Origin: Candidatus Woesebacteria bacterium GW2011_GWA1_38_8
GTDB lineage: Bacteria > Patescibacteriota > Microgenomatia > UBA8517
NCBI GenBank assembly: GCA_000993025.1
Contig: LBVJ01000001.1
Coordinates: 29,699-93,698, forward strand
Reading direction: 5' to 3'
Length of the DNA: 64,000 nucleotides
Made by a program: the position numbers and the translations under genes. Positions 16,730 to 44,091 of this stretch are shown here, one piece after another; position 1 is the first letter of the stretch, and each line of letters opens with the position of its first letter. The notes under the pieces are model-generated. The model searched no databases. It was not told the origin of the DNA and was given only the letters and a program-made list of their open reading frames with translations.

Positions 16730-17761
16730 ATGAAATCAAATAAAAAGATATTATTTCTGGCCAGACTTTTTATTCCGCACATCGGTGGTGTAGAGAAGCA
16801 GGTTTTTGAATTGAGCAAGCGACTTGTAAAGCGAGGATATAAAGTTAAGGTAATTACTGAAAAATATGACAGTTCTCTAAAAAATAAGGAAATAGTTGAT
16901 GGTGTTGAGATTGTCAGGTTTAATAAGCTCCCCGTAAAGTACTTCGGTTTATTATCAATATGGATATGGTTTTTATTCCACCTGAAATATTTGAGGAATG
17001 CAGATCTTGTACACGCTCATAGCGTTTATGTTTGGTATTGGCCTTTTAAATTTTTATTTCCAAGAAAGCCAAATTTTGTAACATTTCATGGTTGGGAAGG
17101 GATTTACCCAATTCCTTTTAAAAATAAAATAATTCGCAAGATTGACACCTTGCTTTCGAATAAGAACATTACTATCTCAGACTACGTTGAAAAACACTAC
17201 GGTATAAAAGCGGATGTTTTAATGTATACATCAGTGAATGTTAACACAAACACTGCTAATGGCTTGGTTAAAAGTAAAAACAGTTTACTGTATGTCGGGA
17301 GATTGGATGAAGACACGGGTTTGAGGAAAATCTTAAAATGCCTGTCGTTTTTAAAGAAAACAAAGATTCATGTCGAATTTTGTGGAGACGGTCCTTTAAA
17401 AAAAGATTGTATGAAATATGGGAAGGTGCGTGGTTTTGTAGATCCAACCGAATATTATAAAAAGTCGTTTATTTGTTTGTCTCCGGGTCATACCTCCATT
17501 CTTGAAGCATTTACCTACAAATGTTTGATTGTTACAACATATAACAATCCCGTAAAAAAAGACTATCTTTTAATGACACCGTTTAGGAGGTGGATTGTTG
17601 TTAGAAATTCACCCAAGAAATTGGCGGAGGAGATAAAGTATTTTTTGAAACACCCCGGAAAGGCAAAGGCGTTGACCGTTCCGGCATATGAGTGGGTGAA
17701 GACACAGAATTGGGACGAGGGGGTGAAAACATACATCAAACTTTGGGAAATAGAGAAATAG
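16730..17761 (+). CDS. GT4-family (GT-B) glycosyltransferase
   Basis: N-terminal LFLARLFIPHIGGVEKQVFELSKRL (GT4 N-domain); C-terminal EAF/sugar-donor binding region; 343 aa. Confidence 0.7.
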   Translation: MKSNKKILFLARLFIPHIGGVEKQVFELSKRLVKRGYKVKVITEKYDSSLKNKEIVDGVEIVRFNKLPVKYFGLLSIWIWFLFHLKYLRNADLVHAHSVYVWYWPFKFLFPRKPNFVTFHGWEGIYPIPFKNKIIRKIDTLLSNKNITISDYVEKHYGIKADVLMYTSVNVNTNTANGLVKSKNSLLYVGRLDEDTGLRKILKCLSFLKKTKIHVEFCGDGPLKKDCMKYGKVRGFVDPTEYYKKSFICLSPGHTSILEAFTYKCLIVTTYNNPVKKDYLLMTPFRRWIVVRNSPKKLAEEIKYFLKHPGKAKALTVPAYEWVKTQNWDEGVKTYIKLWEIEK

Positions 17762-17895
17762 TTACTTTGAAGGTTGTCATCACGCGAGGCAATAAAAAAC
17801 AGATTTTGAACCGGTCACAGTAATGTTAAGATAGCCGGATAAGCAATAAATGTAAGTGTCTTGCCTCAGCGTAAACAGTTTTATATACTTAAGTA

Positions 17896-18291
17896 ATGGA
17901 AGAGTTACGAAAAAAGGTAAATAAGACTTCAAGGATTGTCGATAACCTTATAAAAGTAGTTACTGTTATATCCTTTTTATTATTTTTGGTTTCATTTTAT
18001 ATATATAAATACAAAGCAGGCGAAATATTTAAAGATCAGGTGGTTCTTTGTGATGTTGTTTTAAGTCAGGGTTTAACGAAGCAAAATCCTTTGGAAAATC
18101 CTATACAATCAGCACTTTTGGGTGCAAAAAATAATTGTTTTAATAATGCTGGAAGAACAGCAGAAATGTGGGGAAAACTTGCTTTTATGGCTTTTGACAT
18201 TAGTTTTCTTTTACCTTTTGTTTACTTCGGAAGTAAGAAAGTAGTAAAGGATACGCACAGAAATATTGTAAAAGTACATGTATTTATTTGA
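17896..18291 (+). CDS. Hypothetical membrane-anchored protein
   Basis: 131 aa, one N-terminal TM (VVTVISFLLFLVSFYIY); no recognisable family. Confidence 0.35.
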   Translation: MEELRKKVNKTSRIVDNLIKVVTVISFLLFLVSFYIYKYKAGEIFKDQVVLCDVVLSQGLTKQNPLENPIQSALLGAKNNCFNNAGRTAEMWGKLAFMAFDISFLLPFVYFGSKKVVKDTHRNIVKVHVFI

Positions 18292-18330
18292 TATTGAATT
18301 AAGCCTAGCTACATTATAATATGAAAGCTA

Positions 18331-19317: not shown

Positions 19318-19320
19318 TAT

Positions 19321-19572: not shown

Positions 19573-19578
19573 GAGTGT

Positions 19579-20472
19579 TTAGGATTGATCGAGGTTTTTG
19601 AGGAATTCAGAAAAGTCTTTTCCGATATCTGATCTTTCAAGGGCAAACAAGACTTGGGTTTGCATATAACGAAGCGGATCACCTGTCGTCAGCCATTTTC
19701 CTTCAATAGGTTGAGCTATAACTTTTTTGCCGGATTGCGCAAGATTATTGAGAACATCAGTGATCCAAAGCTCATTATCCTTTCCGGTAGAAGTGTTTTT
19801 AACTTCTTTTATTACGTCATAACTGAAAACAAACCGTCCAAATTGAGCCATATTCGATGGGTTTTTCCCCAATGGCATTTTTTCAAGAATGGTAGAAATT
19901 TCATAGTTTTTTTCCTTGTTCTTATATTTTACGGTTCCATATCGTTCCACATCAATGTCGGGTACTTCCTGTACAGCCAGAACAGCAGATGGAGAATTAT
20001 TGTAAAAAACATCAATAAGCTGTCTGGTAACGGGCTTTTTAGAAATCGTCAGATCATCGCCGAACATATAAACAACCGATTCATAATTGTCGATAAGGGG
20101 AGCAGCAACCAGTAAAGGGGTACCGTTCCCGTAAGGCAGATTTTTTTTCTGCCGGACGTAGACAAAGTTGGCCATCTGCGGAATATCCCTGACTTTTTTT
20201 AAGAGATCATCTTTACCATTTTTATCGAGCATATATTCAAGTTCCAATGAACTATCGAAGTAATCCTCCATAATTCCTTGTCCGGATCTTGTGACAATGA
20301 TAATGTCTGTGATTCCAGATGAAACACATTCTTCAACCAAATGATGAATTATCGGTTTATCAATTATCGGAAGCATTTCTTTCGGTTGATTTTTTGTTGC
20401 AGGCAAGAAGCGTGTTCCATAACCTGCTGCAGCTATTATTGCTTTTTTTATCTTTCTTCTATTGGTTTTCAC
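19579..20472 (-). CDS. galU: UTP--glucose-1-phosphate uridylyltransferase GalU
   Basis: KKAIIAAAGYGTRFLPATKNQPKEMLPIIDKPIIHHLVEE is the canonical GalU N-terminus. I place the start at GTG (complement of 20470-20472), 9 nt downstream of a TATAAT. The ORF-track start at 20574 adds an unconserved 34-aa extension and would overlap the divergent ykuK-like gene. Confidence 0.75.
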   Translation of the reverse strand: MKTNRRKIKKAIIAAAGYGTRFLPATKNQPKEMLPIIDKPIIHHLVEECVSSGITDIIIVTRSGQGIMEDYFDSSLELEYMLDKNGKDDLLKKVRDIPQMANFVYVRQKKNLPYGNGTPLLVAAPLIDNYESVVYMFGDDLTISKKPVTRQLIDVFYNNSPSAVLAVQEVPDIDVERYGTVKYKNKEKNYEISTILEKMPLGKNPSNMAQFGRFVFSYDVIKEVKNTSTGKDNELWITDVLNNLAQSGKKVIAQPIEGKWLTTGDPLRYMQTQVLFALERSDIGKDFSEFLKNLDQS

Positions 20473-20533
20473 AGTATGTAAATTATACCACAATAATTTG
20501 CTGTAAATATGAAAAAAGACGTATAATTCCAGC

Positions 20534-21031
20534 ATGGAAAATGGAAATATATTTAATAGTCCGAACGGAAACATTTACAATACCGGCGAACTCTTAAGGG
20601 AAATAAAATACTTTGTAGATGAACAACCTGCAGAATTTTATTCACTGATCATAGGCACTGACTCACAAACAAAGAGAATAAATGGAGTTTCAGAAATTGA
20701 TTTTGTTACCGCAATAATAATCTACAGGAAGAAAAAGGGGGCTAGATATTTTTGGACTAAAAAACAAGAGATAAAAAAAGCCGTCTTAAGAGATAAGATC
20801 TATACAGAGACTCTATTGAGTCTTGAATATGCGGAAAGTATAGTGCCTGAAATCAGAGGAATCATACCGCCCTCGAAGTACGACCTTGAAATACATATCG
20901 ATGTTGGACCATTTGGTAAAACAAGAAACATGATCCGTGAGGTAGTTGGTATGGTGACCGGAAATGGTTATGTCGCGAAAACTAAACCTGAAAGTTGGGG
21001 AGCAAGTTCGGTTGCTGATAAGCATACTTGA
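20534..21031 (+). CDS. YkuK-family (DUF458) RNase H-like protein
   Basis: 165 aa; SLIIGTDSQTKRINGVSEIDFVTAIIIY matches the GTDSQ-containing YkuK signature as remembered. Confidence 0.45.
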   Translation: MENGNIFNSPNGNIYNTGELLREIKYFVDEQPAEFYSLIIGTDSQTKRINGVSEIDFVTAIIIYRKKKGARYFWTKKQEIKKAVLRDKIYTETLLSLEYAESIVPEIRGIIPPSKYDLEIHIDVGPFGKTRNMIREVVGMVTGNGYVAKTKPESWGASSVADKHT

Positions 21032-21106
21032 CCAAGCTGCGCTTGTTAATTTCTAATTTTTAATTACTAATTTCTAAATATTTATTTTTGGGGTAATATT
21101 ACACTC

Positions 21107-21829
21107 ATGAAAGGAATAATATTGGCCGGGGGAAAGGGAACAAGGCTGCGTCCCTTAACAATAATTACCTGTAAACAGCTTCTTCCTGTTTACGACAAAC
21201 CAATGATATATTATCCGATCAACACTCTGGTCACCTCAGGAATAAAGGACATCTTAATAATAATCGCTCCTGAATATTCAGGACATTTCTTAAATTTACT
21301 TGGATCGGGAAAAGAATTCGGAGCGCGCTTCAGTTACGCAATTCAAGATGAGCCCAGAGGTCTTGCAGACGCTTTTATAGTGGGAGAGGATTTTATCGAT
21401 AATGACAACGTCACTCTTATCTTGGGCGACAATATTTTTGAAAAGGATTTTTCAACGGAAATTGGTTCGTTTAAATCAGGTGGAATGGTTTTTGCGAAAA
21501 AAGTTTCTGACCCTGAAAGATTCGGTGTTGTAGAGTTTGATAAAAAAATGAAAGCAACAAAGATCGTTGAAAAACCTAAAGATCCAAAGAGTGATTATGC
21601 AGTTGTTGGGCTTTATGTTTATGACAAAAATGTGGTTAAAAATGCCAAGAATCTCAAACCCTCCGATCGTAGAGAGATCGAAATTACCGATCTTAATAAT
21701 CTATATTTAAAAGAGGATAATCTGAAAGTGAATATTTTTGACGGGATTTGGGAAGACGCAGGGGATTTTGACAGCTTGTTAAGGGTGAGTAATTATATGG
21801 CAGGAAAAGCAGCAAGAATTAAGGGATGA
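21107..21829 (+). CDS. rmlA: Glucose-1-phosphate thymidylyltransferase (short-form RmlA-like sugar nucleotidyltransferase)
   Basis: MKGIILAGGKGTRLRPLT (G-x-G-T-R-L) nucleotidyltransferase motif; 240 aa; heads a rmlABCD block. Confidence 0.75.
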   Translation: MKGIILAGGKGTRLRPLTIITCKQLLPVYDKPMIYYPINTLVTSGIKDILIIIAPEYSGHFLNLLGSGKEFGARFSYAIQDEPRGLADAFIVGEDFIDNDNVTLILGDNIFEKDFSTEIGSFKSGGMVFAKKVSDPERFGVVEFDKKMKATKIVEKPKDPKSDYAVVGLYVYDKNVVKNAKNLKPSDRREIEITDLNNLYLKEDNLKVNIFDGIWEDAGDFDSLLRVSNYMAGKAARIKG

Positions 21830-21878
21830 GTAATAAGTGAGAAGTACGGGGAAAAGAATGAATGTGGTCAAAAAGATT

Positions 21879-21905
21879 TTTCTAGTACTTAGTTTCTAGT
21901 ACCTA
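21879..21905. promoter_or_regulatory. Tandem near-palindromic 13-nt repeat (TTCTAGTACNTAG x2) just upstream of rmlB
   Basis: ttctagtacttag-t-ttctagtacctag; each unit centred on the palindromes CTAG/GTAC. 15 nt upstream of the rmlB ATG. Confidence 0.25.
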
Positions 21906-21920
21906 GTATATATCGAACTT

Positions 21921-22925
21921 ATGAATTTATTAGTTACAGGAGGGGCTGGCTTTATCGGAAATAATTTTATTCGATATTGGCTTAATAAATATCCGAAAGA
22001 TAAAATATTAAATTTTGACAAGCTCACATATGCAGGACATATCAGTTCCACAAGAGATTTTTCCCAAAATAATAATTACGAATTTATAAAGGGAGATGTA
22101 TGTGACGCAAAAGCAGTAGACGAAGCAGTAAAAAAAACTGACACCATAGTTCACTTTGCTGCAGAAAGCCACGTGGATCGTTCAATACTTGACCCTTTGG
22201 TGTTTGTTCACACAAATGTCATGGGAACACAGGTTTTACTCGAAGCTGCTGTTAAGTATAAGATCAACAGATTTCATCACGTTTCCACTGATGAAGTTTT
22301 TGGTGAGCTTAAATTGGGAACTAATAAAAAATTTAATGAAACCACTCAATATGACCCCAAAAGTCCATATTCTGCCAGTAAAGCGGCTTCAGACCATTTG
22401 GTGAGAGCTTATGGGAAAACATATTCCCTACCGATCACGATATCAAACTGCTCTAATAATTACGGACCCTTTCAGGATCCCGAAAAATTTATACCTCGTG
22501 CAGTAACGAATTTAATTGACGGTAAATCTGTTCCTATATATGGAGACGGTAAATATACACGTGATTGGCTGTATGTTGAAGACCATGTAAGAGCAATAGA
22601 GACCATATTAACAAAAGGAAAGGCTGGAGAGACTTATCTTATAGGAGGATTGACTGAGGATATTAATAATTTAGAGGTTGTTAGAATGATATTAAAAATA
22701 TTAAATATAAATGGGTCATACATAAAATATGTAAAGGACAGAGCAGCGCATGACAGAAGATATGCAGTCGATTGGAGGAAAATTCATAGTAAATTGAAAT
22801 GGAAACCTATGTATGGTTTTGATACGTGGCTTGAAAAAACAGTTGAATGGTATAAAAATAACGAATGGTGGTGGAGGCCGTTAAAGAAAAAGGCTGAAGT
22901 ATTTTATAGAAATACCGAAAAATGA
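21921..22925 (+). CDS. rmlB: dTDP-glucose 4,6-dehydratase
   Basis: TGGAGFIGNNF Rossmann motif; catalytic YSASKAASD (YxxxK); SDR extended family; 334 aa. Confidence 0.9.
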   Translation: MNLLVTGGAGFIGNNFIRYWLNKYPKDKILNFDKLTYAGHISSTRDFSQNNNYEFIKGDVCDAKAVDEAVKKTDTIVHFAAESHVDRSILDPLVFVHTNVMGTQVLLEAAVKYKINRFHHVSTDEVFGELKLGTNKKFNETTQYDPKSPYSASKAASDHLVRAYGKTYSLPITISNCSNNYGPFQDPEKFIPRAVTNLIDGKSVPIYGDGKYTRDWLYVEDHVRAIETILTKGKAGETYLIGGLTEDINNLEVVRMILKILNINGSYIKYVKDRAAHDRRYAVDWRKIHSKLKWKPMYGFDTWLEKTVEWYKNNEWWWRPLKKKAEVFYRNTEK

Positions 22926-22929
22926 TTAT

Positions 22930-23547
22930 ATGAAGTGTAAAAACTTGGACGTAAATAAATTAAAAGTAAGTTGTGAACCATACATAATCGACACTCCTAT
23001 AGAAGGAGTTTTTGCCGTTAAACGTCCAAGATACGGTGATTCCCGTGGCAGTTTTCAAGAACTTTTGAGAATTCCGGATATTTCCAAACGATTTCAAGAA
23101 ACACAGATAGATCAATCTCAAATATCTGTATCGAAAGTTAATGTCTTACGGGGGATCCATGCAGAACCCAGAGACAAGATCATTACACCAATTTTAGGTA
23201 GGATGGCGGCGGTGGTTGTTGATTTAAGGGTTGAATCACCGACTTTTAAAATGTGGGTTCGTTTTGATTTTGATAATACAAATCCTGAAAATGAATTTAC
23301 CACTCTTTTTGTTCCTTCAGGATGCGGAAATTCTCTTTGTGTGTACAAAAAATCCGATGATGCAGGGGATGGTACTGTAATTTACCATTATACCTACAGT
23401 AGTATTTATGATCCTAAGTGGTCGGGATCGGGAGTCAGATATAATGATCCCCAACTTGATATTATTTGGCCGATTAAAAATCCCGTTTTATCCAATAGAG
23501 ACAAGGAACTTCCACTGCTTGACGAATTTATTGTAAAATACCGATGA
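22930..23547 (+). CDS. rmlC: dTDP-4-dehydrorhamnose 3,5-epimerase-like cupin (RmlC)
   Basis: 205 aa cupin with DSRGSFQE and GIHAEPRDK region resembling RmlC active-site segments; positioned between rmlB and rmlD. Confidence 0.65.
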   Translation: MKCKNLDVNKLKVSCEPYIIDTPIEGVFAVKRPRYGDSRGSFQELLRIPDISKRFQETQIDQSQISVSKVNVLRGIHAEPRDKIITPILGRMAAVVVDLRVESPTFKMWVRFDFDNTNPENEFTTLFVPSGCGNSLCVYKKSDDAGDGTVIYHYTYSSIYDPKWSGSGVRYNDPQLDIIWPIKNPVLSNRDKELPLLDEFIVKYR

Positions 23548-24449
23548 ATGATAAGGTGCTAATTACAGGTTCCGACGGAATGGTCGGCTCAAGGTTTGTT
23601 GAACTATATCCAAATAAAAACGAACTGCTTGCTCCAACAATCGCCGAATTTGACCTGTTGAATCCTCATTCGATGGAAAGATATCTGAAAAATAACCCGG
23701 TTTCGTCTGTAATTAATTTTGCAGCCTATACGGATGTGAGAGAAGCAGAGAAAGATAGAGGAAATGAAAATGGACTGTGCTGGAATATAAACATTAAGGG
23801 AATAAAAAATCTGGTTAGTCTATTCGGATCGAAAGTTCATCTTGTACATATTTCAACCGATATGGTATTTAGCGGAAGTAAAGATGATAAGGGACCTTAT
23901 AAAGAGGTACGATGTCCCGAGCGGGATCCGAGCAAGGTTACATGGTATGGTTATACCAAAGGGGAAGGTGAGAATATTATAAGAGAGGCGGATATTAGTT
24001 CAACAATAATAAGAATAATATATCCGGTCAGGGCAAAATATGATAATAAATCAGATTATCTGAGAAAACATTTGAAGCTATATAATGATGATGCATTGTA
24101 TCCGATGTTTAGTGATCAGAAAATATCTGTCACCTTTATTGATGAATTATGTACGACTATCGGTAAAATATTATCCGATAAAATACGTGGTGTCTATCAT
24201 TGTTCCTCAAGTGATACTACCACACCTTATGAACTGATCAGTTATTTAATTGAGGCTAAATATGGAGTGAAAAATACCGTGAAAAGTGCATCTATACATG
24301 AATTTTTGAGAACTTCGGATAATCCACTGAGATATCCCATATTCGGAGGATTAAAATGCGGCATTTCACAAAAAGCACTTGGTATCAGGTATTCCACTTG
24401 TAAGCAGATCGTGAACAAATTGATCGGGCAAAATATTTCTCCTAGATAA
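23544..24449 (+). CDS. rmlD: dTDP-4-dehydrorhamnose reductase (RmlD-like SDR)
   Basis: N-terminal VLITGSDGMVGSRF NAD(P)-binding motif, YGYTKGEGE (YxxxK); 301 aa; last gene of the rml block. Confidence 0.7.
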   Translation: MNDKVLITGSDGMVGSRFVELYPNKNELLAPTIAEFDLLNPHSMERYLKNNPVSSVINFAAYTDVREAEKDRGNENGLCWNINIKGIKNLVSLFGSKVHLVHISTDMVFSGSKDDKGPYKEVRCPERDPSKVTWYGYTKGEGENIIREADISSTIIRIIYPVRAKYDNKSDYLRKHLKLYNDDALYPMFSDQKISVTFIDELCTTIGKILSDKIRGVYHCSSSDTTTPYELISYLIEAKYGVKNTVKSASIHEFLRTSDNPLRYPIFGGLKCGISQKALGIRYSTCKQIVNKLIGQNISPR

Positions 24450-24593
24450 TTTCATAACAGACCTTCATTCTTTTTTTACCACATTAATACTACTCTTCCA
24501 TAGTGCATAATAAATTGTATTATAGGATTATTTGTTATATAATATACCTCACTTTACAGGCTCGTACGGTATTTCTTAAACGAATTATAAGAT

Positions 24594-27572: not shown

Positions 27573-27574
27573 AT

Positions 27575-28681: not shown

Positions 28682-28685
28682 ACAT

Positions 28686-30533: not shown

Positions 30534-30584
30534 AAGTATGAGAATAGGAGACTAATATAAATATCGTCATAATCATTATATGAA

Positions 30585-34815: not shown

Positions 34816-34897
34816 TAGACGGGTTATTGATACGTCTGGAAGACATTGTTTACGCCTCTTCATATGGACACAGTTACGATATATAATATAGTTCCAA

Positions 34898-35845
34898 ATG
34901 AAAGTGTCACTTGTTGTTACCGTACTAAATGAAGAACCGTCGATTGCAGCACTTCTCGAGTCTATTATTTCTCAGTTAAAGAAACCTGATGAGATTGTTA
35001 TTGTCGATGGTGGTTCAACCGACAAGACTGTAAACATAATAAAAAGTTATCAAAAAATTATTAAGAATATAAAATTATATGAATTTAAGACTACAAGATC
35101 CGAAGCGAGAAATATTGGAATAGATGCATCTTCAGGCAATATTATTGTTACAACAGACGCAGGTTGCGTTGCCGAAAAACATTGGATAGAAAAGATTACA
35201 AAACCGTTTTATGAACCAAAAGTTGATATGGTTGCAGGATTTTATGAAATGATCGGCGGTAATTCTTCATTAAGGCTTGCAATGTCCGTATTTATTGGTA
35301 TAACACCTGACAAATTTGATGATAGATTTTTGGCGTCGGCTAGATCTTTGGCATTCCGAAAAGATCTTTGGGAGAAAGTAGGAGGGTTTCCTGAAGGTTT
35401 GAAAGATACCGCAGAAGATACACTTTTCAATTACAAAATTATTACAACAGGGGCGAAGATAGTACGTGTAAAAGATGCGGTTGTGTACTGGCAATTGCCG
35501 TTGACTTTGACGGAAGGGATCAAAAAAATGTATCTTTATGCCAAAGGTGATGCTTTATCCGGTATATGGTGGCATCCGGTAAAGAAATTATCGACCCACA
35601 ACATTAAGATCATCTCCGTATATTTAAGGTATGTAATTGGTATCTATATACTCCTTATGGCCACAAAATATGAATTGTTTAATTTACTGTTCGTATTGGG
35701 AATATTTTTTTATATGTTTTGGGCATTTAAGAAAGTATACTGTCGGACGAACAGTTTTAAAGCCGGTTTGTGGGGGGTAATTATACAGTTTGCTTCGGAC
35801 ATTGCCGTAATGCTCGGCTTCCTTATGGGATTGGTGTCAATATAA
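34898..35845 (+). CDS. GT2-family glycosyltransferase with C-terminal membrane helices
   Basis: SLVVTVLNEE...IVIVDGGSTDKT GT2 N-terminus; TTDAG DxD-like motif; C-terminal 3 TM. Confidence 0.7.
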   Translation: MKVSLVVTVLNEEPSIAALLESIISQLKKPDEIVIVDGGSTDKTVNIIKSYQKIIKNIKLYEFKTTRSEARNIGIDASSGNIIVTTDAGCVAEKHWIEKITKPFYEPKVDMVAGFYEMIGGNSSLRLAMSVFIGITPDKFDDRFLASARSLAFRKDLWEKVGGFPEGLKDTAEDTLFNYKIITTGAKIVRVKDAVVYWQLPLTLTEGIKKMYLYAKGDALSGIWWHPVKKLSTHNIKIISVYLRYVIGIYILLMATKYELFNLLFVLGIFFYMFWAFKKVYCRTNSFKAGLWGVIIQFASDIAVMLGFLMGLVSI

Positions 35846-35894
35846 CCTTCAGAAACATTTAAGGCATTAAGAATGATAAAATCAGATCATTGAT

Positions 35895-37112
35895 ATGGGT
35901 TACTTTGACACAAGCATGTCGGGTGTAAAATGGATTGGATCGTTTAAGATATTGAGTAGAATATTGTCACTGGTAAGAATCGCAATTCTAGCCAGAATTC
36001 TATCCCCCATTCAATTCGGAGTATTTGGAATTGCCTCTTTAGCATTATCAGTTGTTGAGACTTTGACTGAACCGGGGATTTACGTATATTTGATGCAGGA
36101 GAAAAAAAGTATCCACAAATATATTGATACGGCTTGGGTTATATCAATTCTCAGAGGTGTTTTATTGTTTACCACCCTGATTTTTTCTTCAGGCATTATA
36201 TCCGGCTTTTTTAACACACCGGAAGTGAAACATATTATAAACTTAATTGCACTGGTTGTTTTAATAAGAGGGTTCATGAATCCCTTGAGGGTCAATTTCC
36301 TGAAACAATTGGATTATAGAAAAGAATTTTCAATCAATAGTTTAGTCTTATCTGTTGATATTGTTGTCACTGTCTTATCGGTGGCACTTTTTAAAGACCC
36401 TCTTGGATTAGTTTTAGGATTGATCGCGGGTGCCATTGTGGAAGTGATTCTTTCTTTTGCTCTTATAAAATATCACCCAAAAATTAAATTTGATATTCGG
36501 TTGGCAAAAAAAATAACGTCTGCGGGAAAATGGGTTACCGGTAGCACAATTTTCAACTTTCTATTTAGCGAAGGTGATGACACCCTTGTGGGGAAGTTAT
36601 TAGGCAAATACGATCTGGGGATATATCAGATCTCATATAAAATTGCGACACTACCTCTTACAGAAATTACCAATGTGGCAAATACAGTAACATTTCCGAT
36701 ATTCGTACAGATCTCGAATGAAAAGAAACGCATTGCAAAGGTATTCATAAAAACAGCTTTGATTATTGGCTTATTGTCGTTTGTATTAAGTACTTTTATA
36801 TTTTTATTTGCTGACACAATCGTTGCGATACTACTCGGAAGTGCATGGAGTGACTCGGTAGATTTAATTAAACTACTGGTGATATTCGGATTCATTAGAG
36901 CAATCGCAATATCCTGCAACCCTCTTTTTAATGCATTAAAAAAGCAAAAATATGTTACGTTATATACCACAATCTCATTTGTACTTATGGCAATGACAAT
37001 TTTTCCATTAATGCAGAAATTTGGCCTGAGAGGTGTAATCTATTCAGTCATTATATCCTCGTCAATCTCGTTTTTAGTGAATGTAATAAATGTAATAAAA
37101 GTACTCAAATGA
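35895..37112 (+). CDS. wzx: Polysaccharide/O-unit flippase (Wzx, MOP superfamily)
   Basis: 405 aa, ~12 TM. N-terminal KWIGSFKILSRILSLVRIAILARILSPIQFGVF is typical of the Polysacc_synt family. Confidence 0.65.
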   Translation: MGYFDTSMSGVKWIGSFKILSRILSLVRIAILARILSPIQFGVFGIASLALSVVETLTEPGIYVYLMQEKKSIHKYIDTAWVISILRGVLLFTTLIFSSGIISGFFNTPEVKHIINLIALVVLIRGFMNPLRVNFLKQLDYRKEFSINSLVLSVDIVVTVLSVALFKDPLGLVLGLIAGAIVEVILSFALIKYHPKIKFDIRLAKKITSAGKWVTGSTIFNFLFSEGDDTLVGKLLGKYDLGIYQISYKIATLPLTEITNVANTVTFPIFVQISNEKKRIAKVFIKTALIIGLLSFVLSTFIFLFADTIVAILLGSAWSDSVDLIKLLVIFGFIRAIAISCNPLFNALKKQKYVTLYTTISFVLMAMTIFPLMQKFGLRGVIYSVIISSSISFLVNVINVIKVLK

Positions 37113-37954
37113 AAAGAGTTGACCCGAAATTATATACAAAAGAATATTATCTAAAAGATTGCGGTGGATATGAAGAATATCTTAACCATCGCGGAAATGA
37201 ACTTGATTCAAGATTACAAAGTGTTTTTAAAAGATTTTCGGATGTAAAAGGAAAGACTATTTTGGACATTGGTTGTGGACGTGGTGAATTGTGCGTTAAA
37301 TTCGCACGCGAAGGAGCGGTCAATGTCGTCGGTGTAGATTACTCAGCCGATGCGATAAAACTGGCTAACGAAATTAAATCTATTCAACCTGCAAAAACCA
37401 GAAATAAGATTAGATTTTACAATTATGACGCAAAAGATATCCTTCATCTTAAGAAAACATTTGATATTGTCATTATGACTGAAGTATACGAACACCTATA
37501 TCAGGAAGAGCTTGATTTTATCCTTGAAAATATTAAAAGAATTTTAAGCAAAGACGGTGTTTTATTTATTCATACATCACCCAATAAACTATTTTATGAC
37601 ATATTTTATAAGTTTTGGTGCTATCCCGTTTCTGAGATACTAATTAACATTTGGAATATATTTTCAGGAAAAAGTTATGGAAGATTAATAAAATATGAAG
37701 AACTTAGGAACCCGTATCATAATGTTATGCATGTAAATGAACCAACATACTTTGGTTTGTTAAATATTGTCCGAAAACACGGATACAAAGGTAAAATCAG
37801 AACGACCAATATTACAGCAATAAAACCGGTTTATTCCGCAAAAGATACAATATATAATTTTTTAGTATATTTTTACCCATTTAGTAAATTGTTTCCATTT
37901 AACATTATTATGGGGTGTGATTTTAATATAGTATTAAAATCAGATGAAAATTAA
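37109..37954 (+). CDS. SAM-dependent methyltransferase (Methyltransf_11/23-like)
   Basis: ILDIGCGRGEL motif I; VGVDYS motif II; 281 aa. Confidence 0.65.
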   Translation: MKRVDPKLYTKEYYLKDCGGYEEYLNHRGNELDSRLQSVFKRFSDVKGKTILDIGCGRGELCVKFAREGAVNVVGVDYSADAIKLANEIKSIQPAKTRNKIRFYNYDAKDILHLKKTFDIVIMTEVYEHLYQEELDFILENIKRILSKDGVLFIHTSPNKLFYDIFYKFWCYPVSEILINIWNIFSGKSYGRLIKYEELRNPYHNVMHVNEPTYFGLLNIVRKHGYKGKIRTTNITAIKPVYSAKDTIYNFLVYFYPFSKLFPFNIIMGCDFNIVLKSDEN

Positions 37955-38738
37955 ACTTAATAAACACGATTTATATCGACTAATAGAGAATTTTTGGTTT
38001 GCTCCCAATGATGCTCTTCTTCGATCAGTGGAGGTTTCTATATGGAAAAATATCAAATTCAAAAAACCTGTTATGGAGATTGGAGTGGGCGATGGAATAA
38101 TGGACAAGTTTTTATTTAAAAATAAAATAATCGACGTTGGAATTGATATTGATGCTAAAGGAATAATAAACGCAAAGAATAATTCATTGTATAAAAAGGT
38201 TGTCTTTATGTCTGCGGCAAATATGAATATTCATAACAGCACATTCAATACGATTATTGCAAACAGCACTTTTGAGCATATTAAATATGATCTAAAAGCG
38301 ATTTCTGAAGTATCAAGAGTACTTAAAAAAAATGGTAAATTTATCTTTTGTGTTCCAACAGATAGGTTTGCGGGTCTTCTTAGCCAAAATTCAAAAGATG
38401 AATCGGAAATATTAAGTTACAACAAAAGAGTATCACAATTTCATTACAGATCTTTGAGAGAATGGACAAAAATACTTAAAACCAACGGATTAAAGATCGT
38501 TGATTACAAATATTACTTTCCTGAAAATGTTTTTAAGATGTGGTATAAACTTCACAAATTGGTCGTGTTAAAACCTTACAAAAGGGAACTTTGGTCTTAT
38601 TTAAAAGACTCTCCATTAAGAAAATTTATTCCTGAAACTGTTGTAATCAAATTATTAAAAATATTACTATTACCATATTACTATTCGATAGTGTCGGATG
38701 ATGGTGTTTGGATATTTATAATTTCTCAAAAAACATGA
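37944..38738 (+). CDS. SAM-dependent methyltransferase
   Basis: [11 protein letters not shown] motif I, IDVGIDID motif [12 protein letters not shown] post-III; 264 aa. Confidence 0.6.
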
Positions 38739-39859
38739 ATATTGCCGTCTATCACAACGTTCCTCCGGGGGGTGCAAGGAGAACCGTTCTGGAGGAGGTT
38801 AAATATCTCTCGAAAAAGCATGTTGTAGATTTTTATCTAACCTCTCCAAGATATCCCGACATCATGGATGTAAAGCCGTATGTACGCAATTGTTTCAATT
38901 GGGATTTCAGCGTAAAAAACAGATTACCTTCTTTTTTAAATCGTTTAAAAATGGATTTAGATGTATTCATAAAATTGAAGCAGCTTCATAAAAATATTGC
39001 AGATGAAATTAACAGAAGGAATTACGATATTGTATTAGCCCACTCCGATGAATATCTCGAAGCACCGTATCTTCTTCGATACCTTAAGACTAACTCAATT
39101 TATTTTTGTCACGAACCATTAAGAATGGTGTATGAAGATGAACTAAAATTCAATAAGAAAGTGATATTTTACAAATATCTTTATGAGAAAACGGTTCGGA
39201 TTATGAAAAAGTATGACGAAAGATCGAACGTTTATTCTGCTGATTTAATAGTTACCTCATCGAGATTTACAAAGGACAATATATTGAAATATTATAACGT
39301 GGGATCTGTAGTGTGCTATCTGGGTGCGGACAGTATGATTTTTAAGCCCGGTAAGAATAAAACCAAACGACTTCTTTTTATAGGTAATAAAAACAGCATG
39401 GAAGGTTATGATCTTGCATGCAAAATAATCAAACTATTAAAACTCAATTATTTTACATTGAAGGTTCTTGATTTTAAAAACAAGAAGATGAAGATTACAA
39501 ACGATTTTGTTTTATCTAAAGAATATTCAAAGAGTTTTGCTACATTATGTCTTGATCAAAACGAACCCTTTGGTTTGAAAGCTATCGAATCGATGGCTTG
39601 CGGAACTCCTGTCCTGGCTGTAAATGAAGGGGGATACAGGGAGTCTGTAATAGATGGCGTAACGGGTTATCTTCTGCCCAGGAATGCAAAAGCTTTTGCC
39701 TATAAAATAATTGAACTAAATAATCACCCTTCACTTTACAAGAAAATGTCGAACGACTGTGTAAAAGTAGTAGGAAAAAAATGGTCGTGGGAAGATCATG
39801 GGAAAAGGCTGGAAAAGTCGCTGGAAAAGCTTGTAAATTTCAAACGAGCACTTAGGTAA
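38708..39859 (+). CDS. GT4-family glycosyltransferase
   Basis: C-terminal [29 protein letters not shown] motif; 383 aa. Confidence 0.7.
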
Positions 39860-39866
39860 TCAAAAT

Positions 39867-42128
39867 ATGATACAAGTAAAGTTATCCATAATAATTCTCA
39901 ACTATAATAGCGATAATAATACAATCTGCTGCATTGAAAGTATTAAAAGATCACGCTTTGATACCCGCTACGAAATAATTGTTGTTGATAATAGCGACAA
40001 GAAGTCCTTAGATCGTAAACTTCGCACAAGTCACAAAGGTGTTGTATACATTAAAAGCAAAAATAGAGGTTATGGTGCAGGAAATAACCTGGGAATAAAA
40101 TATGCAAAAGGGGAATACATATTTATAATTAATCCCGACAGTATAGTATTTCCCAAAACACTCCAAACCCTATCCGGATATTTAGATAAAAATCCCGATA
40201 CGGCAATTGTTGCACCGAATTTGTATGACAAAAATGAAAAGCTCTTTATTCAGATGGGGTCAAGAGAGTTGACACCTATAAGAGCCATCTTTTCATTATC
40301 TCTACTTAACAAGGTATTTCCAAAAAATCCGGTATCTAAACGATACTACCTTTTTGATAAACCATTGGACTGCTTACGGGAAGCCGATGCCGTTCCCGGA
40401 TCTGCATTTATGATGAGAAAAGCTATTTTTGTAAAAGCAGGAAAATTTGACGAAAATATGTTTTTGTATTTTGAAGAATCGGATCTTGGTAAAAGAATTC
40501 GTAAAATGGAGTATAAGATTGTGATCAACCCAAAGGCAAAAGTAATTCACAAATGGGAAGCTGTGAAAGAAAATGAGAACTTGGGTAAGCATTTTCAGGA
40601 TAGCCGGCTTTACTATTTACGAAAACACTTTGGCATTGTTCCGGCATTGATATCCGAGGCTGTGTGCAGACTATCGTTTTATGATATTGCATTCATAATG
40701 ATATTTATTATCGGAGCATTTTTTAGATTTTATAAGATCGATTCGCAATTTTATTTTGATTCGGAAACGGCTGACAACCTACTTGTTATGAAAAACCAGA
40801 TAGAAAATCGCACGATTCCGCTCGTTGGACCTCCGACCTCTCACCCATGGCTATATTTTGCGCCGTTATTCTATTGGCTATATATTCCGATAATGATTAT
40901 CACAAAGTACGAACCTCTCTATCATTTTATATTCGGGAATATTATTAACCTGTTGTCGGTGATTCTTTATTATATCGTTGTAAAAATTTATTGGGGTAAA
41001 AAAACGGCAATTCTGACATCTATATTTATGTCGTTTTCCCCCTATCTGATCACATTTTCATGGTCAGCAAGATTTTATACCTATGTACTTCCGCTTTCCG
41101 CGGTATATCTGCATTTTCTTTTTAAGTCATTTCTGGATAGCAAGTATATATTTTGGTTATTTCTTATACTTGGTGTATTTTGCAGTTTTCACTATACGCC
41201 AATCATCTTACTGCCGATAACGATGTTAATATTTTTGTTAAAACGGATGAAAATAGACCGTTATGTATTATTAAGCGGAATTGCAGGGTTTGTGATACCA
41301 GTGATTCCTTTAATAATCGATGGCATAAAGAATAATTTTTCTATGCTTGTAAAATTTCTGATTTGGATTCCGTACAGATTATTTGGATTTACCGGAGTGA
41401 CTTCAGAAAAAGAGATCTTTTCCACAAAAACAAGTGTTCTTTCGATAATGACATATTTCAATTGTTTATTCGGAATTAGTAGTAATTACATCTTTATTTC
41501 TTTTGTTATAGCATCCATTTTCATAATCGTGATTGCGCGAAGTTTTGCAGCAAGTCATATGCGAAATATTTTTATTAGTCCTCATAATCAAAATACGGTA
41601 GTGACGTTATACATCGTTTTATTATCGCTAATATTTTTATTTCTGCACGGAGAGGCACCTATGCATTATTATTTATTCATTACCCCAATGTTATTTATCT
41701 TGATTGCGAAAGCATTGCTGTTGATGGTCGGTCACTACAAACACATTGTACTTGTGACATTCTTTGCGATAATTATTATTATGATATTTAGCGACCTTTC
41801 ACTTATAAATTGCCGAGATAAAAGTGATTCATATAATATTTTGGAAAAAGCGACGGAAATTATTGCCGAGGATTGTAATGGCTGTCATTATAAATTGAAA
41901 AGAATTGGAGAGAATGATGATTTCACAAGAGATTTTGCACAAAATTATCAATATCTTTTAGAGATGAAGGGAATTAATCCAACTGCTGTTGGAGATATAA
42001 TAATATCAAGTGAAATTCCTGAAATTGAATATACGATAGTAGAAAATATAAAGATGAAAGAATATCTGGAGGAAGAAGAGATTCTGTTCGATGAGAACGG
42101 CATTGTTATTTTAAAAAGACTTATATGA
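39867..42128 (+). CDS. GT2 glycosyltransferase (rhamnosyltransferase-like) fused to a large C-terminal polytopic membrane domain
   Basis: 753 aa. Residues 1-260: GT2 (LSIIILNYNS, IVVDNSD, INPDS DxD-like). Residues 270-700: ~12 TM helices of GT-C/ArnT-like character. Confidence 0.6.
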   Translation: MIQVKLSIIILNYNSDNNTICCIESIKRSRFDTRYEIIVVDNSDKKSLDRKLRTSHKGVVYIKSKNRGYGAGNNLGIKYAKGEYIFIINPDSIVFPKTLQTLSGYLDKNPDTAIVAPNLYDKNEKLFIQMGSRELTPIRAIFSLSLLNKVFPKNPVSKRYYLFDKPLDCLREADAVPGSAFMMRKAIFVKAGKFDENMFLYFEESDLGKRIRKMEYKIVINPKAKVIHKWEAVKENENLGKHFQDSRLYYLRKHFGIVPALISEAVCRLSFYDIAFIMIFIIGAFFRFYKIDSQFYFDSETADNLLVMKNQIENRTIPLVGPPTSHPWLYFAPLFYWLYIPIMIITKYEPLYHFIFGNIINLLSVILYYIVVKIYWGKKTAILTSIFMSFSPYLITFSWSARFYTYVLPLSAVYLHFLFKSFLDSKYIFWLFLILGVFCSFHYTPIILLPITMLIFLLKRMKIDRYVLLSGIAGFVIPVIPLIIDGIKNNFSMLVKFLIWIPYRLFGFTGVTSEKEIFSTKTSVLSIMTYFNCLFGISSNYIFISFVIASIFIIVIARSFAASHMRNIFISPHNQNTVVTLYIVLLSLIFLFLHGEAPMHYYLFITPMLFILIAKALLLMVGHYKHIVLVTFFAIIIIMIFSDLSLINCRDKSDSYNILEKATEIIAEDCNGCHYKLKRIGENDDFTRDFAQNYQYLLEMKGINPTAVGDIIISSEIPEIEYTIVENIKMKEYLEEEEILFDENGIVILKRLI

Positions 42129-42865
42129 AAATATCGGCTGTAGTTTTGACAAAAAACAGTGCTGACAAAATAAAATCCCTATATACCTCGCTTAAAGGAT
42201 TTGATGAAATTATTTTTATTGACGACGGTTCAACAGATAAAACAAAAGCTCTATGCTCTAAATTCGGTATCACGTATATAAAAAGAGCACTTAAGGCTGA
42301 TTTTTCATCGCAAAGAAATTATGCTCTTGATACAGCAAATAATGATTGGGTCTTCTTTCTTGACAGCGATGAAAAAGTTAACTCCATCTTTACTAATGAG
42401 GTGCGGGAAAATATAAAAATAGGAGGATATAACGGTTACTATATAAAGCGGATAAATATATTTTTTGATCATAAAGTAATGGGAACCGAAATGGGTGAGC
42501 AGCATATAATCCGGTTGGCTAATAAATCATACGGAAGATGGAAAAGAAAAGTACATGAATATTGGGATGTTAAAAAGCCTTTGGGAGAAATATCTGAATC
42601 AGTTGTGCATACAACTGCTAATTCGATCACTGAATTTATAAATAAGATCATTATGTATTATGTAATTCACGCTGAAGAAAATATGGGGTCGGGAAAAAAA
42701 TCAAATTTTTACAAAGTAATATTATTTCCACTTCTTAAGTGTATTAAAAATTTTATTTTTCTGAATGGGTATAAAGACGGTGTTTATGGATTTGTGATAT
42801 CGGTTCTTATGTCCTTTCACTCGTATTTGTCCTGGTCGCAGATGTGGTTAAAAAGTAGACGCTGA
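42125..42865 (+). CDS. GT2-family glycosyltransferase
   Basis: ISAVVLTKNSADKI...IIFIDDGSTDKT, FLDSDE (DxD); 246 aa. Confidence 0.7.
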   Translation: MKISAVVLTKNSADKIKSLYTSLKGFDEIIFIDDGSTDKTKALCSKFGITYIKRALKADFSSQRNYALDTANNDWVFFLDSDEKVNSIFTNEVRENIKIGGYNGYYIKRINIFFDHKVMGTEMGEQHIIRLANKSYGRWKRKVHEYWDVKKPLGEISESVVHTTANSITEFINKIIMYYVIHAEENMGSGKKSNFYKVILFPLLKCIKNFIFLNGYKDGVYGFVISVLMSFHSYLSWSQMWLKSRR

Positions 42866-42915
42866 ATCATGTGGTTTGAATATTGAAATATGAACATAGA
42901 ATATTGGGATAATAT

Positions 42916-44091
42916 ATGAAGATTTTAAGAGTGTATGCTTGCATTCTATTCCTCTCCTTTTGCTTTCTTCTGCCCTTCGGACAATTGTTGAGGTATGAAA
43001 CCTATTTATTTAGTAAATATATTGTTATTCACCCCGTTGATGTTGTTGTCCTTCTATCGTTGCCGTATTTATTGCTATCAAAGAAGAACTCCTATTTTAT
43101 TCACTCAAACAAACTTATTCTGGTGTTAATATTTTCCATGATTTTTTCTCTAAATATTTTTATGGTTAAGGATCTTATGGTAGGCTTTTTGTATTTGATT
43201 CGGTTAATATCATATTTCTCTTTTGCGCATTCTATTTATTATTTGTCTACCGGGGACAAAGTGAAAGAAAAAATAATTACATTTCTATATTTATCTATCA
43301 CATCATTTTTAATTATTGGTTTTGTACAATATATATATTATTTCGACCTTCGTGATCTATATAATATAGGGTGGGATGATCATTATTTCCGATTTGTTTC
43401 AACATTGTTTGACCCTGCCTATACGGCATTGGTTTTAATCATAGGTTTAATAATATTGCTGGAATTTAACTTGCCGATATCGAAATATTTGAAATATATT
43501 TTCACTGTTCTTTTTATCATCTCTATATTATTAACCTTTTCGAGAGCGGGTTATTTAACATTGATAGGATACTTTTTGATTAAATATAAAAAATACGTCT
43601 TGAAGATTTTATTAATTTCAGTCGCAATAATTTTATTTATACTGATCCTTCCAAAGCCAAAAAGTTCCGGGGTCGAAATATATCGTACTTTTAGTATTTA
43701 TTCCAGGTTAGATAATTATTATGAAACTTTTAATATATTCAAGATTCATCCTTTATTTGGAATTGGCTTTAATAACATATGCCTTTATAGGGTTGGATAT
43801 CTAAATGTCGACAACATAAAGTCACATTCTTGTTCGGGAAGTGATTCGTCTATTCTTTTACTCTTGGCGTCGAGTGGAATATTGGGATTAGTAACTTTTA
43901 TTAATGTTATTTTCAATTTTATTAAAAATCCTATCACAAACTCTTACAACAGGATGTTATTTTATCTGATATTTATAACATTAATTAATTCGCTTTTTAA
44001 TAATAGCCTTTTTTACAATTATTTAATGGGGGTATATGCAATTATATTAGGTCTGGCGGGACCAGCTTTCATTCCTCAAAGAAAAGAGTGA
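42916..44091 (+). CDS. O-antigen ligase/polymerase-like (Wzy_C family) membrane protein
   Basis: 391 aa, ~10 TM. Periplasmic loop FSRAGYLTLIGYF with the conserved Arg, typical of the Wzy_C/O-antigen ligase domain. Confidence 0.5.
   Translation: MKILRVYACILFLSFCFLLPFGQLLRYETYLFSKYIVIHPVDVVVLLSLPYLLLSKKNSYFIHSNKLILVLIFSMIFSLNIFMVKDLMVGFLYLIRLISYFSFAHSIYYLSTGDKVKEKIITFLYLSITSFLIIGFVQYIYYFDLRDLYNIGWDDHYFRFVSTLFDPAYTALVLIIGLIILLEFNLPISKYLKYIFTVLFIISILLTFSRAGYLTLIGYFLIKYKKYVLKILLISVAIILFILILPKPKSSGVEIYRTFSIYSRLDNYYETFNIFKIHPLFGIGFNNICLYRVGYLNVDNIKSHSCSGSDSSILLLLASSGILGLVTFINVIFNFIKNPITNSYNRMLFYLIFITLINSLFNNSLFYNYLMGVYAIILGLAGPAFIPQRKE

Follow-up and report, generated by a model that had tools for sequence, protein, structure and literature searches.

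Gene content of the block

We analysed a window of 64 kb (the whole stretch of DNA under study, to which all coordinates refer) from the small genome of Candidatus Woesebacteria bacterium GW2011_GWA1_38_8 (Rifle aquifer), with a GC content of about 35%. Our subject is a block of about 27 kb within it (16730-44091), which carries glycan-biosynthesis genes and which a preliminary description had proposed to be a horizontally acquired island. Pfam and NCBIfam scans covered open reading frames (ORFs) of at least 100 amino acids (aa) not nested in a longer one in a different frame or on the opposite strand, and the searched span was extended by 10 kb past each window end (about 84 kb in all). Homologous loci or contigs from other assemblies, compared by local BLASTP and ARAGORN, are designated by L-numbers. 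The block contains the following features (GT, glycosyltransferase; GH, glycoside hydrolase; TM, transmembrane; SAM, S-adenosylmethionine).

16730-17761, plus strand: GT4a (Pfam Glyco_transf_4, Glycos_transf_1); 60-62% identity in L016, L017 and L019
17896-19317, plus strand: 131-aa membrane protein and CAP-domain protein with C-terminal TM segments (Pfam CAP, TM scan)
19579-20574, minus strand: GalU-like UTP–glucose-1-phosphate uridylyltransferase (NTP_transferase)
20534-21031, plus strand: PF04308 RNaseH-like protein (Pfam, E = 1.1e-44); 58-73% identity in relatives
21107-24449, plus strand: rmlA, rmlB, rmlC and rmlD (starts 21107, 21921, 22930 and 23544), dTDP-L-rhamnose pathway
24594-27572, plus strand: 992-aa GT2 and GT4 fusion (Pfam Glyco_trans_2_3 and Glycos_transf_1)
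27575-28681, plus strand: GT4b (Pfam)
28686-30533, plus strand: 615-aa PIG-L and Acetyltransf_6 fusion, cytoplasmic (Pfam); variable cassette
30585-32120, plus strand: 511-aa GT-C-fold glycosyltransferase without Pfam family (poly511 family)
32110-34815, plus strand: 901-aa PMT_2-type GT-C and GH5 fusion (alternative start 32050, 921 aa)
34898-35845, plus strand: 315-aa membrane GT2 with C-terminal TM segments (Pfam Glycos_transf_2, Glyco_transf_21, Glyco_trans_2_3)
35895-37112, plus strand: Wzx-type (MOP) flippase (Polysacc_synt_3, E = 6.6e-61)
37109-38738, plus strand: two SAM methyltransferases, MT2 and MT3 (starts 37109 and 37944; Pfam); partly variable cassette
38735-39859, plus strand: GT4c (Pfam; alternative start 38708); 43-46% identity in L008 and L011-L013
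39867-42128, plus strand: 753-aa fusion of WbbL-like GT2 (residues 1-237) and PMT_2-type GT-C (Pfam GT2, Glyco_tranf_2_2)
42125-42865, plus strand: 246-aa GT2 (Pfam); 47-50% identity in L011-L013
42916-44091, plus strand: Wzy_C-domain polytopic protein, polymerase or ligase (Pfam Wzy_C, E = 2.9e-12); 48-53% identity in L011-L013

The inventory proposed earlier (rmlABCD, a galU-like gene, GT4s, GT2s, Wzx, a Wzy-like protein, two methyltransferases and a deacetylase-acyltransferase fusion) was borne out by Pfam and NCBIfam. Four GT4 domains (the genes at 16730, 27575 and 38735 and the C-terminal half of the 992-aa protein) and four GT2 domains (the genes at 34898 and 42125 and parts of the 992-aa and 753-aa proteins) are present, so that both earlier counts were correct. 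There are, however, three GT-C modules and not two, the third being the C-terminal half of the 753-aa protein, with about 8-10 TM segments.

The genes from 21.1 to 44.1 kb follow one another on the plus strand over about 23 kb; they overlap or are separated by no more than 145 nt. Judged by the predicted products, two kinds of assembly machinery lie in this co-directional string. Module A (24.6-35.8 kb) consists of the synthase GT2–GT4 fusion, a GT4, the PIG-L/Acetyltransf_6 fusion, two GT-C proteins (the second with GH5) and the small membrane GT2. Module B (35.9-44.1 kb) consists of Wzx, two methyltransferases, a GT4, the WbbL-like GT2–GT-C fusion, a GT2 and the Wzy_C protein; a MOP-family flippase and a Wzy-type polymerase, the two components of a Wzx/Wzy pathway, are thus both present. 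Of the methyltransferases, MT3 is kept at 42-43% identity in L012 and L013, and MT2 at 38% in L011.

As for sugar supply, RmlABCD furnish dTDP-L-rhamnose according to their family assignments, all four families of the pathway being found (NTP_transferase, E = 1.8e-63; GDP_Man_Dehyd/Epimerase, E = 4e-80; dTDP_sugar_isom, E = 1.7e-32; RmlD_sub_bind, E = 1.4e-34). UDP-glucose probably comes from the GalU-like enzyme, which matches TIGR01099 with 251 bits, under the 327-bit equivalog cutoff, and which gene callers start later (304 aa). In relatives sharing this region, the PF04308 RNaseH-like gene always lies between the galU-like gene and rmlA. About 2-4 kb right of the window end (L098:12064-14664), there is a PGM_PMM protein (452 aa) next to a bact-PGI_C protein (356 aa, of the bifunctional phosphoglucose/phosphomannose isomerase, or PGI/PMI, family), a possible route to mannose-1-phosphate. 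Relatives hold further hints of mannose supply: a GMPPB-type nucleotidyltransferase in L095, and a phosphomannomutase (PMM) with PGI/PMI in L096.

The PIG-L domain has as nearest solved relatives the glycopeptide N-acetylglucosamine (GlcNAc) deacetylases Dbv21 and Orf2*, and for this reason the fusion fits, by sequence, a deacetylate-then-reacylate step; the Acetyltransf_6 part is a FemAB-like GNAT. Its substrate is presumably lipid- or nucleotide-linked GlcNAc of the glycan. Such fusions are rare, though not confined to this locus: among 1.84 billion representatives, some 18-20 full-length clusters stand against hundreds of PIG-L proteins without a partner. When one genome per GTDB species was scanned, the result was one distant match only, to the PIG-L domain alone (L007, 35%).

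Membrane synthase and the GT-C–GH5 fusion

The 992-aa protein starts with two TM segments, followed by a GT2 domain, about three further TM segments and a cytoplasmic GT4 (residues 625-952). The TM segments (75-126 and 396-497) and the motifs DAED (238-241), TED (331-333) and QRSRW (368-372) are those of a BcsA/PgaC-like membrane synthase; the NCBIfam model PgaC_IcaA aligned end to end (residues 108-502), and Escherichia coli BcsA was matched in the PDB (7lby, E = 5.5e-9). On these grounds, the protein is a predicted cellulose-synthase-like membrane synthase fused to a cytoplasmic GT4. The GT2 domain reported earlier is real; its synthase nature had been missed. Across relatives, identity in the synthase domain (residues 60-520) is 52-79%. 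Several orthologues (L008:2281-6492; L016:1618-6141, minus strand; L009:292-4941) are longer, 1,403-1,549 aa, with some 450-500 extra residues between GT2 and GT4. In L008 this segment has a weak MOP-flippase match (Polysacc_synt, residues 598-863, E = 1.3e-5), and the L009 orthologue carries an additional N-terminal GT2.

The 315-aa GT2 combines a GT2 domain with C-terminal TM segments (about residues 236-315); it may be a polyprenyl-phosphate (lipid) hexosyltransferase. Identity in L008, L012 and L013 is 76-78%. Its matches in the PDB are weak (PcManGT, 6yv7; GtrB, 5ekp, E = 1.6e-4 over residues 2-96 only), and Glyco_transf_21 and Glyco_trans_2_3 also match it.

Upstream of it, the 901-aa protein joins a GT-C domain (about residues 1-550) to a GH5 subfamily-7-like beta-mannanase domain (about 556-901, matched region about 556-857). 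The polytopic GT-C had been recognised in the preliminary description; the GH5 domain had not. By sequence, the GH5 domain matches only beta-mannanases (PDB 9m20, E = 2.5e-46; 8gf3; tomato LeMAN4a, 1rh9), and its (beta/alpha)8 barrel is nearest to mannan-specific GH5 enzymes. Its motifs WELMNEPR (acid/base, NEP) and FFIEEIG (nucleophile) align with the catalytic motifs of 9m20, 8gf3 and 1rh9, and N724, E725, P726 and E830 are at least 90% conserved among 34 homologues. Both catalytic glutamates are kept and the domain is predicted to be catalytically intact.

The N-terminal domain of about 550 residues has Foldseek matches to DPY19 and STT3 and a PMT_2 match in 23 of the 34 homologues. In the first outer loop, H64, R69 and D73 are invariant and D60 is at least 90% conserved, while the RYD motif (202-204) is invariant throughout. 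The neighbouring 511-aa protein belongs to a family of more than 1,100 unannotated GT-C enzymes (poly511 family), in which E51, E55 and D84 are invariant and which fold comparison places equally close to ALG12 and ArnT. Both families have a polytopic GT-C fold with acidic residues in the first loop. From the fold and the adjacent membrane GT2, we infer that these enzymes use a polyprenyl-phosphate-linked sugar donor.

The third GT-C module, in the 753-aa protein, is preceded by a GT2 with a weak TIGR01556 rhamnosyltransferase match. A cutoff of E <= 1e-10 gave 331 clusters of homologues of this protein, from Woese-, Levy- and related Microgenomates; among the 120 listed, nearly all are full-length and most match PF13231 (PMT_2). 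The GT2–GT-C architecture is, by this sequence comparison, common in Microgenomates.

The GT-C–GH5 fusion recurs as well: Woese-, Gottesman- and related Microgenomates have some 45 clusters of full-length homologues, at 30-58% identity. There were 1,864 homologues at E <= 1e-10, and among the matches listed nearly all others were stand-alone GT-C proteins of about 540 aa. An orthologue of the synthase GT2 (52-79% identity) lies at most 10 kb from the fusion in the window and in L008, L009, L094, L095 and L096; in L018, it is upstream of poly511 and the contig ends before the expected position of the fusion. The gene directly before the fusion encodes a poly511-family GT-C in the window, L008, L009, L010, L094 and L095 (twice). 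L094 offers a compact three-gene version (GT2-495, GT-C-475, GT-C–GH5-868). CE4 (carbohydrate esterase family 4) deacetylases are present in the L009, L010 and L094 loci.

Two side observations concern such fusions. In L009, from a related Microgenomates genome, an 881-aa PMT/PMT_2 protein fused to GH8 (GH8, E = 2.9e-46) adjoins a 463-aa synthase-like GT2 (13857-17886, minus strand), and represents a second kind of GT-C–glycoside-hydrolase fusion. L010 (Gottesmanbacteria) holds several GT-C–GH5 paralogues within 22 kb, including 20920-22689 (minus strand). A GT-C ORF and a GH5 ORF at L010:17460-19974 (minus strand) were considered as an unfused pair that could give Rosetta-stone support, and were rejected: they overlap by 70 nt in different frames and are uncalled in the record, so that they are probably a frameshifted copy of the fusion.

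Could the GH5 domain be catabolic? The 901-aa protein would then be a membrane-anchored beta-mannanase scavenging environmental or host polysaccharide, with its N-terminus as a mere anchor and its neighbours there by coincidence. Characterised GH5_7 enzymes are indeed degradative or remodelling mannanases, L096 has an additional stand-alone GH5 nearby, and GH5 "cellulase" matches in metagenome-assembled genomes of Patescibacteria are routinely counted as catabolic potential (PMC9868632). Yet the conserved GT-C hallmarks and the PMT_2 match indicate selection for an enzymatic N-terminus. The fusion is on the same strand as adjacent glycosyltransferases in all contexts that we examined, mostly directly after a poly511-family GT-C, and no sugar transporter or mannose-catabolic operon is adjacent. 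We consider a catabolic role improbable.

Position, conservation and composition

The block is flanked on the left by FtsW-MurG-FtsQ-FtsA-FtsZ (with MraY just upstream of FtsW), IleRS, RodA, L21/L27, ParB, LepB and IMPDH, and on the right by PolX, LemA, M48, GatCAB and DnaE. Ribosomal protein L27 is the product of the 85-aa ORF on the left of tRNA-Val. Between these genes and the block, the following features were found, the tRNA genes being placed by ARAGORN at the positions claimed earlier.

14045-14119, plus strand: tRNA-Val(cac), left landmark; same position in L017
14382-15068, plus strand: SAM methyltransferase MT1 (Pfam Methyltransf_25/11), backbone gene; 73-75% identity and same position in L017 and L019
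15175-16665, minus strand: M23 peptidase (Pfam Peptidase_M23) and 115-aa protein; lineage-specific indel
44069-44779, minus strand: membrane-anchored Ig-like/Glucodextran_B-domain protein (Pfam); 43-52% identity and same position in L011 and L013
44897-48009: right landmark, made up of tRNA-Thr(cgt), h104, tRNA-Gly(ccc), a LysM protein, an FNR-like protein with an FkbM methyltransferase (variable) and tRNA-Asp(gtc)
44897-44970, minus strand: tRNA-Thr(cgt)
45416-45487, minus strand: tRNA-Gly(ccc)
47935-48009, plus strand: tRNA-Asp(gtc)

In a sibling assembly (GCA_000992425.1, L097), an indel of about 110 nt lies within ftsA relative to window positions 3739-3851; the gene is called there as two (103 and 288 aa), and as one of 426 aa in the window.

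A metagenome scan with the GalU-like protein gave 80 loci, which were mapped to the window proteins. On the left side, L017 (GalU 81% identical) reads IleRS-RodA-L21-ParB-LepB-tRNA-Val(cac)-MT-GT4-h131-CAP-GalU-RNaseH-like-RmlA-RmlB, and L018 extends this order with RmlABCD, a full-length fusion of the 992-aa type (64%), GT4b (57%), a stand-alone PIG-L and poly511. Beyond L016-L019, ten loci or lineages have at least CAP-GalU-RNaseH-like, and nine of the ten also have RmlB and/or the synthase-like GT2 in the same order; the CAP protein is kept at 44-60% identity in at least 15 loci. On the right side, L013, a genome like Woesebacteria GW2011_GWA1_39_21 (753-aa protein 40% identical), reads GT-C–GH5, GT2-315, Wzx, MT, GT4, GT2–GT-C, GT2, Wzy, Ig (minus), tRNA-Thr(cgt, minus), and then h104, tRNA-Gly(ccc, minus), LysM (minus), tRNA-Asp(gtc, plus) and PolX, with tRNA order and orientation as in the window. 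L008, L011 and L012 agree with this right-side order. No polymorphism for presence or absence of the block was seen among L008, L011-L013 and L016-L019. An apparent empty site in L056, where GalU adjoins tRNA-Thr, was set aside: the contig ends 43 nt past the Ig-like gene and cannot show absence of the block.

The synthase-GT2 half (64-79% identity) and the 315-aa GT2 are, by comparison with IleRS, RodA and PolX (57-61%) in these relatives, as conserved as housekeeping genes. What differs between species is a set of cassettes: M23 with the 115-aa protein, PIG-L/Acetyltransf_6, the methyltransferases, extra PMT_2 genes before Wzy, and FNR with FkbM. The M23 pair is missing between MT1 and GT4a in L017 and L019. 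PIG-L/Acetyltransf_6 is a fusion in the window, PIG-L alone in L018 and neither in L008. The FNR-like and FkbM pair (46358-47603) is missing in L013, where an Exo_endo_phos gene lies between tRNA-Thr and tRNA-Gly; like the M23 pair, it is a small lineage-specific indel at an edge of the locus. The variation of internal cassettes fits lineage-specific surface chemistry, as first envisaged, within a scaffold that is itself conserved. Within the aquifer population, six contigs share the gene order, at 99.9% identity along most of the block. One of them, L002 (ENA ERZ28564079 scaffold_1634), has a patch of 98.1% identity over rmlC/rmlD compared to 99.9% elsewhere (window 23256-28409) and a GT4b of 385 aa instead of 368 aa, which suggests local recombination in a co-occurring strain variant.

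An island inserted at tRNA genes, strain-variable and bringing in a foreign surface-glycan pathway, would account for the tRNA genes on both sides, for the cassettes that vary between species, and for the lack of a close PIG-L/Acetyltransf_6 copy in the scan of one genome per GTDB species. The composition of the block at first sight agrees with it. The A/T-richness noted for 28.7-34.8 kb is real (GC 0.30-0.34, compared to 0.35-0.43 in the flanks), and the lower-GC stretches are at 28-34, 37-39 and 43-44 kb. Pooled GC at third codon positions (GC3) is, however, 0.314 in the block and 0.318 in the flanks (per gene, Mann-Whitney P = 0.62), and the deficit is located in codon positions 1 and 2 (GC1 0.394 compared to 0.445). 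The low GC therefore reflects amino-acid composition; observed GC tracks that expected from protein composition and core codon usage, and no difference from the flanks is left once amino-acid content is allowed for. What remains of GC3 deviation is small and of either sign, +0.05 for the 992-aa gene and 0.05-0.07 under expectation for MT2, MT3, poly511 and the GT-C–GH5 fusion, the latter four being in favour of an island. Tetranucleotide distances in 5-kb windows are 0.009-0.016 inside the block, within the range outside it (0.010-0.018).

In the region from 14 to 48 kb, Pfam gave no integrase or transposase match, and the block is not bracketed by direct repeats of tRNA origin. The sole tRNA-derived repeats are partial end copies of tRNA-Asp, at 54-99 nt from it and on the right-hand side of the glycan block. 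A 30-nt direct repeat takes in its 3' end and the following 13 nt (47993-48022 and 48092-48121, 93% identical), and its 5' start belongs to a 20-nt repeat (47870-47889 and 47924-47943). Together they resemble a small att-like scar.

Gene order, the flanks on either side and the tRNA set are retained in relatives whose proteins are 40-80% identical, and the population contigs do not vary for presence of the block. Uniform composition with conserved synteny is the outcome that the preliminary description had itself named as refuting an island; the island is already contradicted by the synteny and composition tests, and we hold it to be highly improbable. From the conserved order, flanks and tRNAs together with the uniform codon composition, we conclude, with a probability of about 0.7, that the block is the main cell-envelope glycopolymer locus, vertically inherited at a fixed position between the cell-division/ParB/LepB and PolX–GatCAB regions.

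Proposed glycan assembly and comparison with known systems

The two modules can be accommodated in the following scheme. In module A, the synthase GT2 would polymerise and export a beta-linked hexosan, of beta-mannan or glucomannan type, a proposal made because the partner hydrolase is GH5_7-like. The GT-C enzymes would add side sugars outside the membrane from polyprenyl-phosphate-sugars made by the 315-aa GT2, and the tethered GH5 may trim, release or transglycosylate the chain, by analogy with BcsZ, PslG and PgaB in other synthase systems. In parallel, cytoplasmic GT4 and GT2 enzymes would build on a lipid carrier a rhamnose-containing, O-methylated unit, which may bear N-acyl-glucosamine; Wzx would flip it, and the Wzy_C protein would polymerise or ligate it. 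The initiating phosphoglycosyltransferase would be encoded elsewhere, as in streptococcal rhamnose polysaccharides and mycobacterial arabinogalactan.

Several points weigh against this scheme and against the envelope-glycopolymer assignment. As the preliminary description had claimed, no initiating phosphoglycosyltransferase, Wzz/Wzc or ABC transporter was found in the scanned ORFs. No PF02397 match, and no PF00953 match beyond MraY (the sole such protein in the span, in the cell-division cluster), was obtained in the window and 10 kb on each side, nor was an initiating phosphoglycosyltransferase seen in the loci of relatives (L008-L013, L094-L096). Over the same span, there was no Pfam match for a chain-length regulator (Wzz/Wzc) and no ABC exporter in the ORFs. 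Seven ORFs of 100-166 aa (at 10157, 45052, 52460, 59030, 59426, 61808 and 62716) were outside the scan, all of them too short for a phosphoglycosyltransferase or an ABC permease. A GtrA flippase (PF04138) gave no match even at E <= 1 in five small unassigned ORFs (16.3-48.5 kb). With no phosphoglycosyltransferase, GtrA-type flippase or chain-length regulator in about 84 kb, the lipid-linked branch is incomplete as read. The 315-aa GT2 has an architecture that suits the GtrB/Dpm1 type but is not clearly of that type, as its sequence does not support an identity as GtrB. A beta-mannan backbone is suggested by the GH5 subfamily resemblance and the nearby PMM/PGI-PMI or GMPPB-type genes, but identity of the GH5 domain to characterised mannanases is 26-30% in structural alignments, and no GDP-mannose pyrophosphorylase was identified in the window or its right-hand extension. 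The location of the GH5 domain outside the membrane is likewise put forward from the positive-inside rule and the PMT analogy. In L010, the 10 kb around the fusion showed no synthase GT2. Finally, modules A and B may make two unrelated products.

PMT_2-type GT-C enzymes could also be protein O-glycosyltransferases, in which case the locus, or at least module A with the GT-C fusions, would glycosylate secreted or surface proteins (pilins, Ig-like, CAP and LysM proteins, sortase substrates), as actinobacterial Pmt/Ppm1 do, and would not make a wall polysaccharide. The PMT and PMT_2 Pfam matches are in keeping with this, the adjacent small membrane GT2 could be a polyprenyl-phosphate-sugar synthase, the conserved neighbours include exported proteins (CAP, Ig-like/Glucodextran_B, LysM), and sortase genes adjoin the fusion in L009, L094 and L095. 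The processive-type synthase GT2, Wzx, Wzy_C and the polysaccharide-cleaving GH5 point instead to polymers. Moreover, PMT_2 includes ArnT-like lipid and glycan transferases, so that the Pfam name leaves the acceptor unfixed, and poly511 is no closer to ALG12 than to ArnT. Protein glycosylation seems to us unlikely, and we retain the assignment to an envelope glycopolymer.

Among known systems, the rhamnose-rich wall polysaccharide loci of Gram-positive bacteria (streptococcal GAC/SCC/Rgp, lactococcal cwps) are alike in having rmlABCD-linked clusters of GT2/GT4 rhamnosyltransferases. In the streptococcal and lactococcal loci, too, the initiating WecA-type enzyme would lie outside the cluster, and a conserved part is combined with a variable one. 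Export differs, by Wzx/Wzy_C here and by an ABC transporter there; the present locus has in addition a BcsA-like synthase–GT4 and three GT-C modules (one with GH5, one with GT2), and a small partner of GtrA/GacJ type was not found in it. The pairing of a membrane GT2 with a GT-C resembles streptococcal side-chain addition, which is reported to take place extracytoplasmically with GacI/GacL (bioRxiv 10.1101/180810).

Synthase-dependent systems, namely Bcs (BcsA with BcsZ), poly-N-acetylglucosamine (PgaC with PgaB), Psl (PslG) and Pel (PelA), share with module A a membrane GT2 with D, DxD, TED and QxxRW motifs and TM helices, and a glycoside hydrolase in the same operon; a deacetylase is also shared (PIG-L here, CE4 in the three relatives mentioned above). 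In contrast to these systems, no BcsB or PgaD co-polymerase and no PilZ/c-di-GMP domain was detected by Pfam in the window. The hydrolase, a GH5 (in one relative a GH8), is part of the same polypeptide as a GT-C, and the synthase is fused to a GT4, to which relatives add a MOP-like segment or a second GT2.

In three-component polyprenyl-phosphate-sugar systems (GtrA/GtrB/GtrV, ArnC/ArnT and CsbB/YfhO; PMC11127046), a polytopic GT-C likewise stands beside a small membrane GT2, and the acidic residues of the first outer loop are present here too. Unlike in these systems, no GtrA flippase was found in the small ORFs scanned, and the 315-aa GT2 resembles Glyco_transf_21/minimal cellulose-synthase-like enzymes as much as GtrB. 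The mycobacterial EmbC and AftD are GT-C arabinosyltransferases with C-terminal carbohydrate-binding domains (PMC3044687). They too have a GT-C membrane domain followed by a soluble extracytoplasmic carbohydrate-recognising domain, and a WbbL-type rhamnosyltransferase occurs in the same envelope pathway; the appended domain, however, is a glycoside hydrolase with both catalytic glutamates here and a lectin-like module there. The PIG-L domain is most similar to the deacetylases of glycopeptide tailoring (Dbv21/Orf2*, then an N-acyltransferase). In that tailoring, the acetyl group is removed and the free amine re-acylated, which matches the fusion partner, although the acyltransferase here is an Acetyltransf_6/FemAB-like GNAT in one chain with the deacetylase.

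The pathway types are therefore known ones. In the literature searched, we found nothing relevant on a GT-C–GH fusion or on a Woesebacteria glycan locus, and their combination, above all the GT-C–glycoside-hydrolase fusions with a Pfam-less GT-C partner, did not turn up there. We put forward tentatively, as a possibility, that the module (synthase GT2, poly511 and GT-C–GH5_7, with GH8 in a sister system) is an undescribed synthase-dependent envelope pathway of beta-mannan type in Microgenomates.

The GH5 domain lies here in a biosynthetic operon, fused to a glycosyltransferase, which calls for caution in catabolic readings of metagenomic data. If our reading is true, some GH5 (and GH8) genes of Patescibacteria in surveys of carbohydrate-active enzymes would serve envelope biogenesis and not cellulose or hemicellulose degradation, and the hydrolase would trim or transglycosylate as an integral part of biosynthesis, being tethered to the very transferase by which the chain is decorated. 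The synthase-like GT2, the GT-C family of more than 1,100 members and the expressible GT-C–mannanase fusion are handles for experiments. Ultrasmall Patescibacteria depend on other cells or live attached to them, and their surface coat is, to our knowledge, almost undescribed. Being as conserved as housekeeping genes in Woesebacteria, this locus is the best candidate for the principal glycopolymer of their wall or surface.

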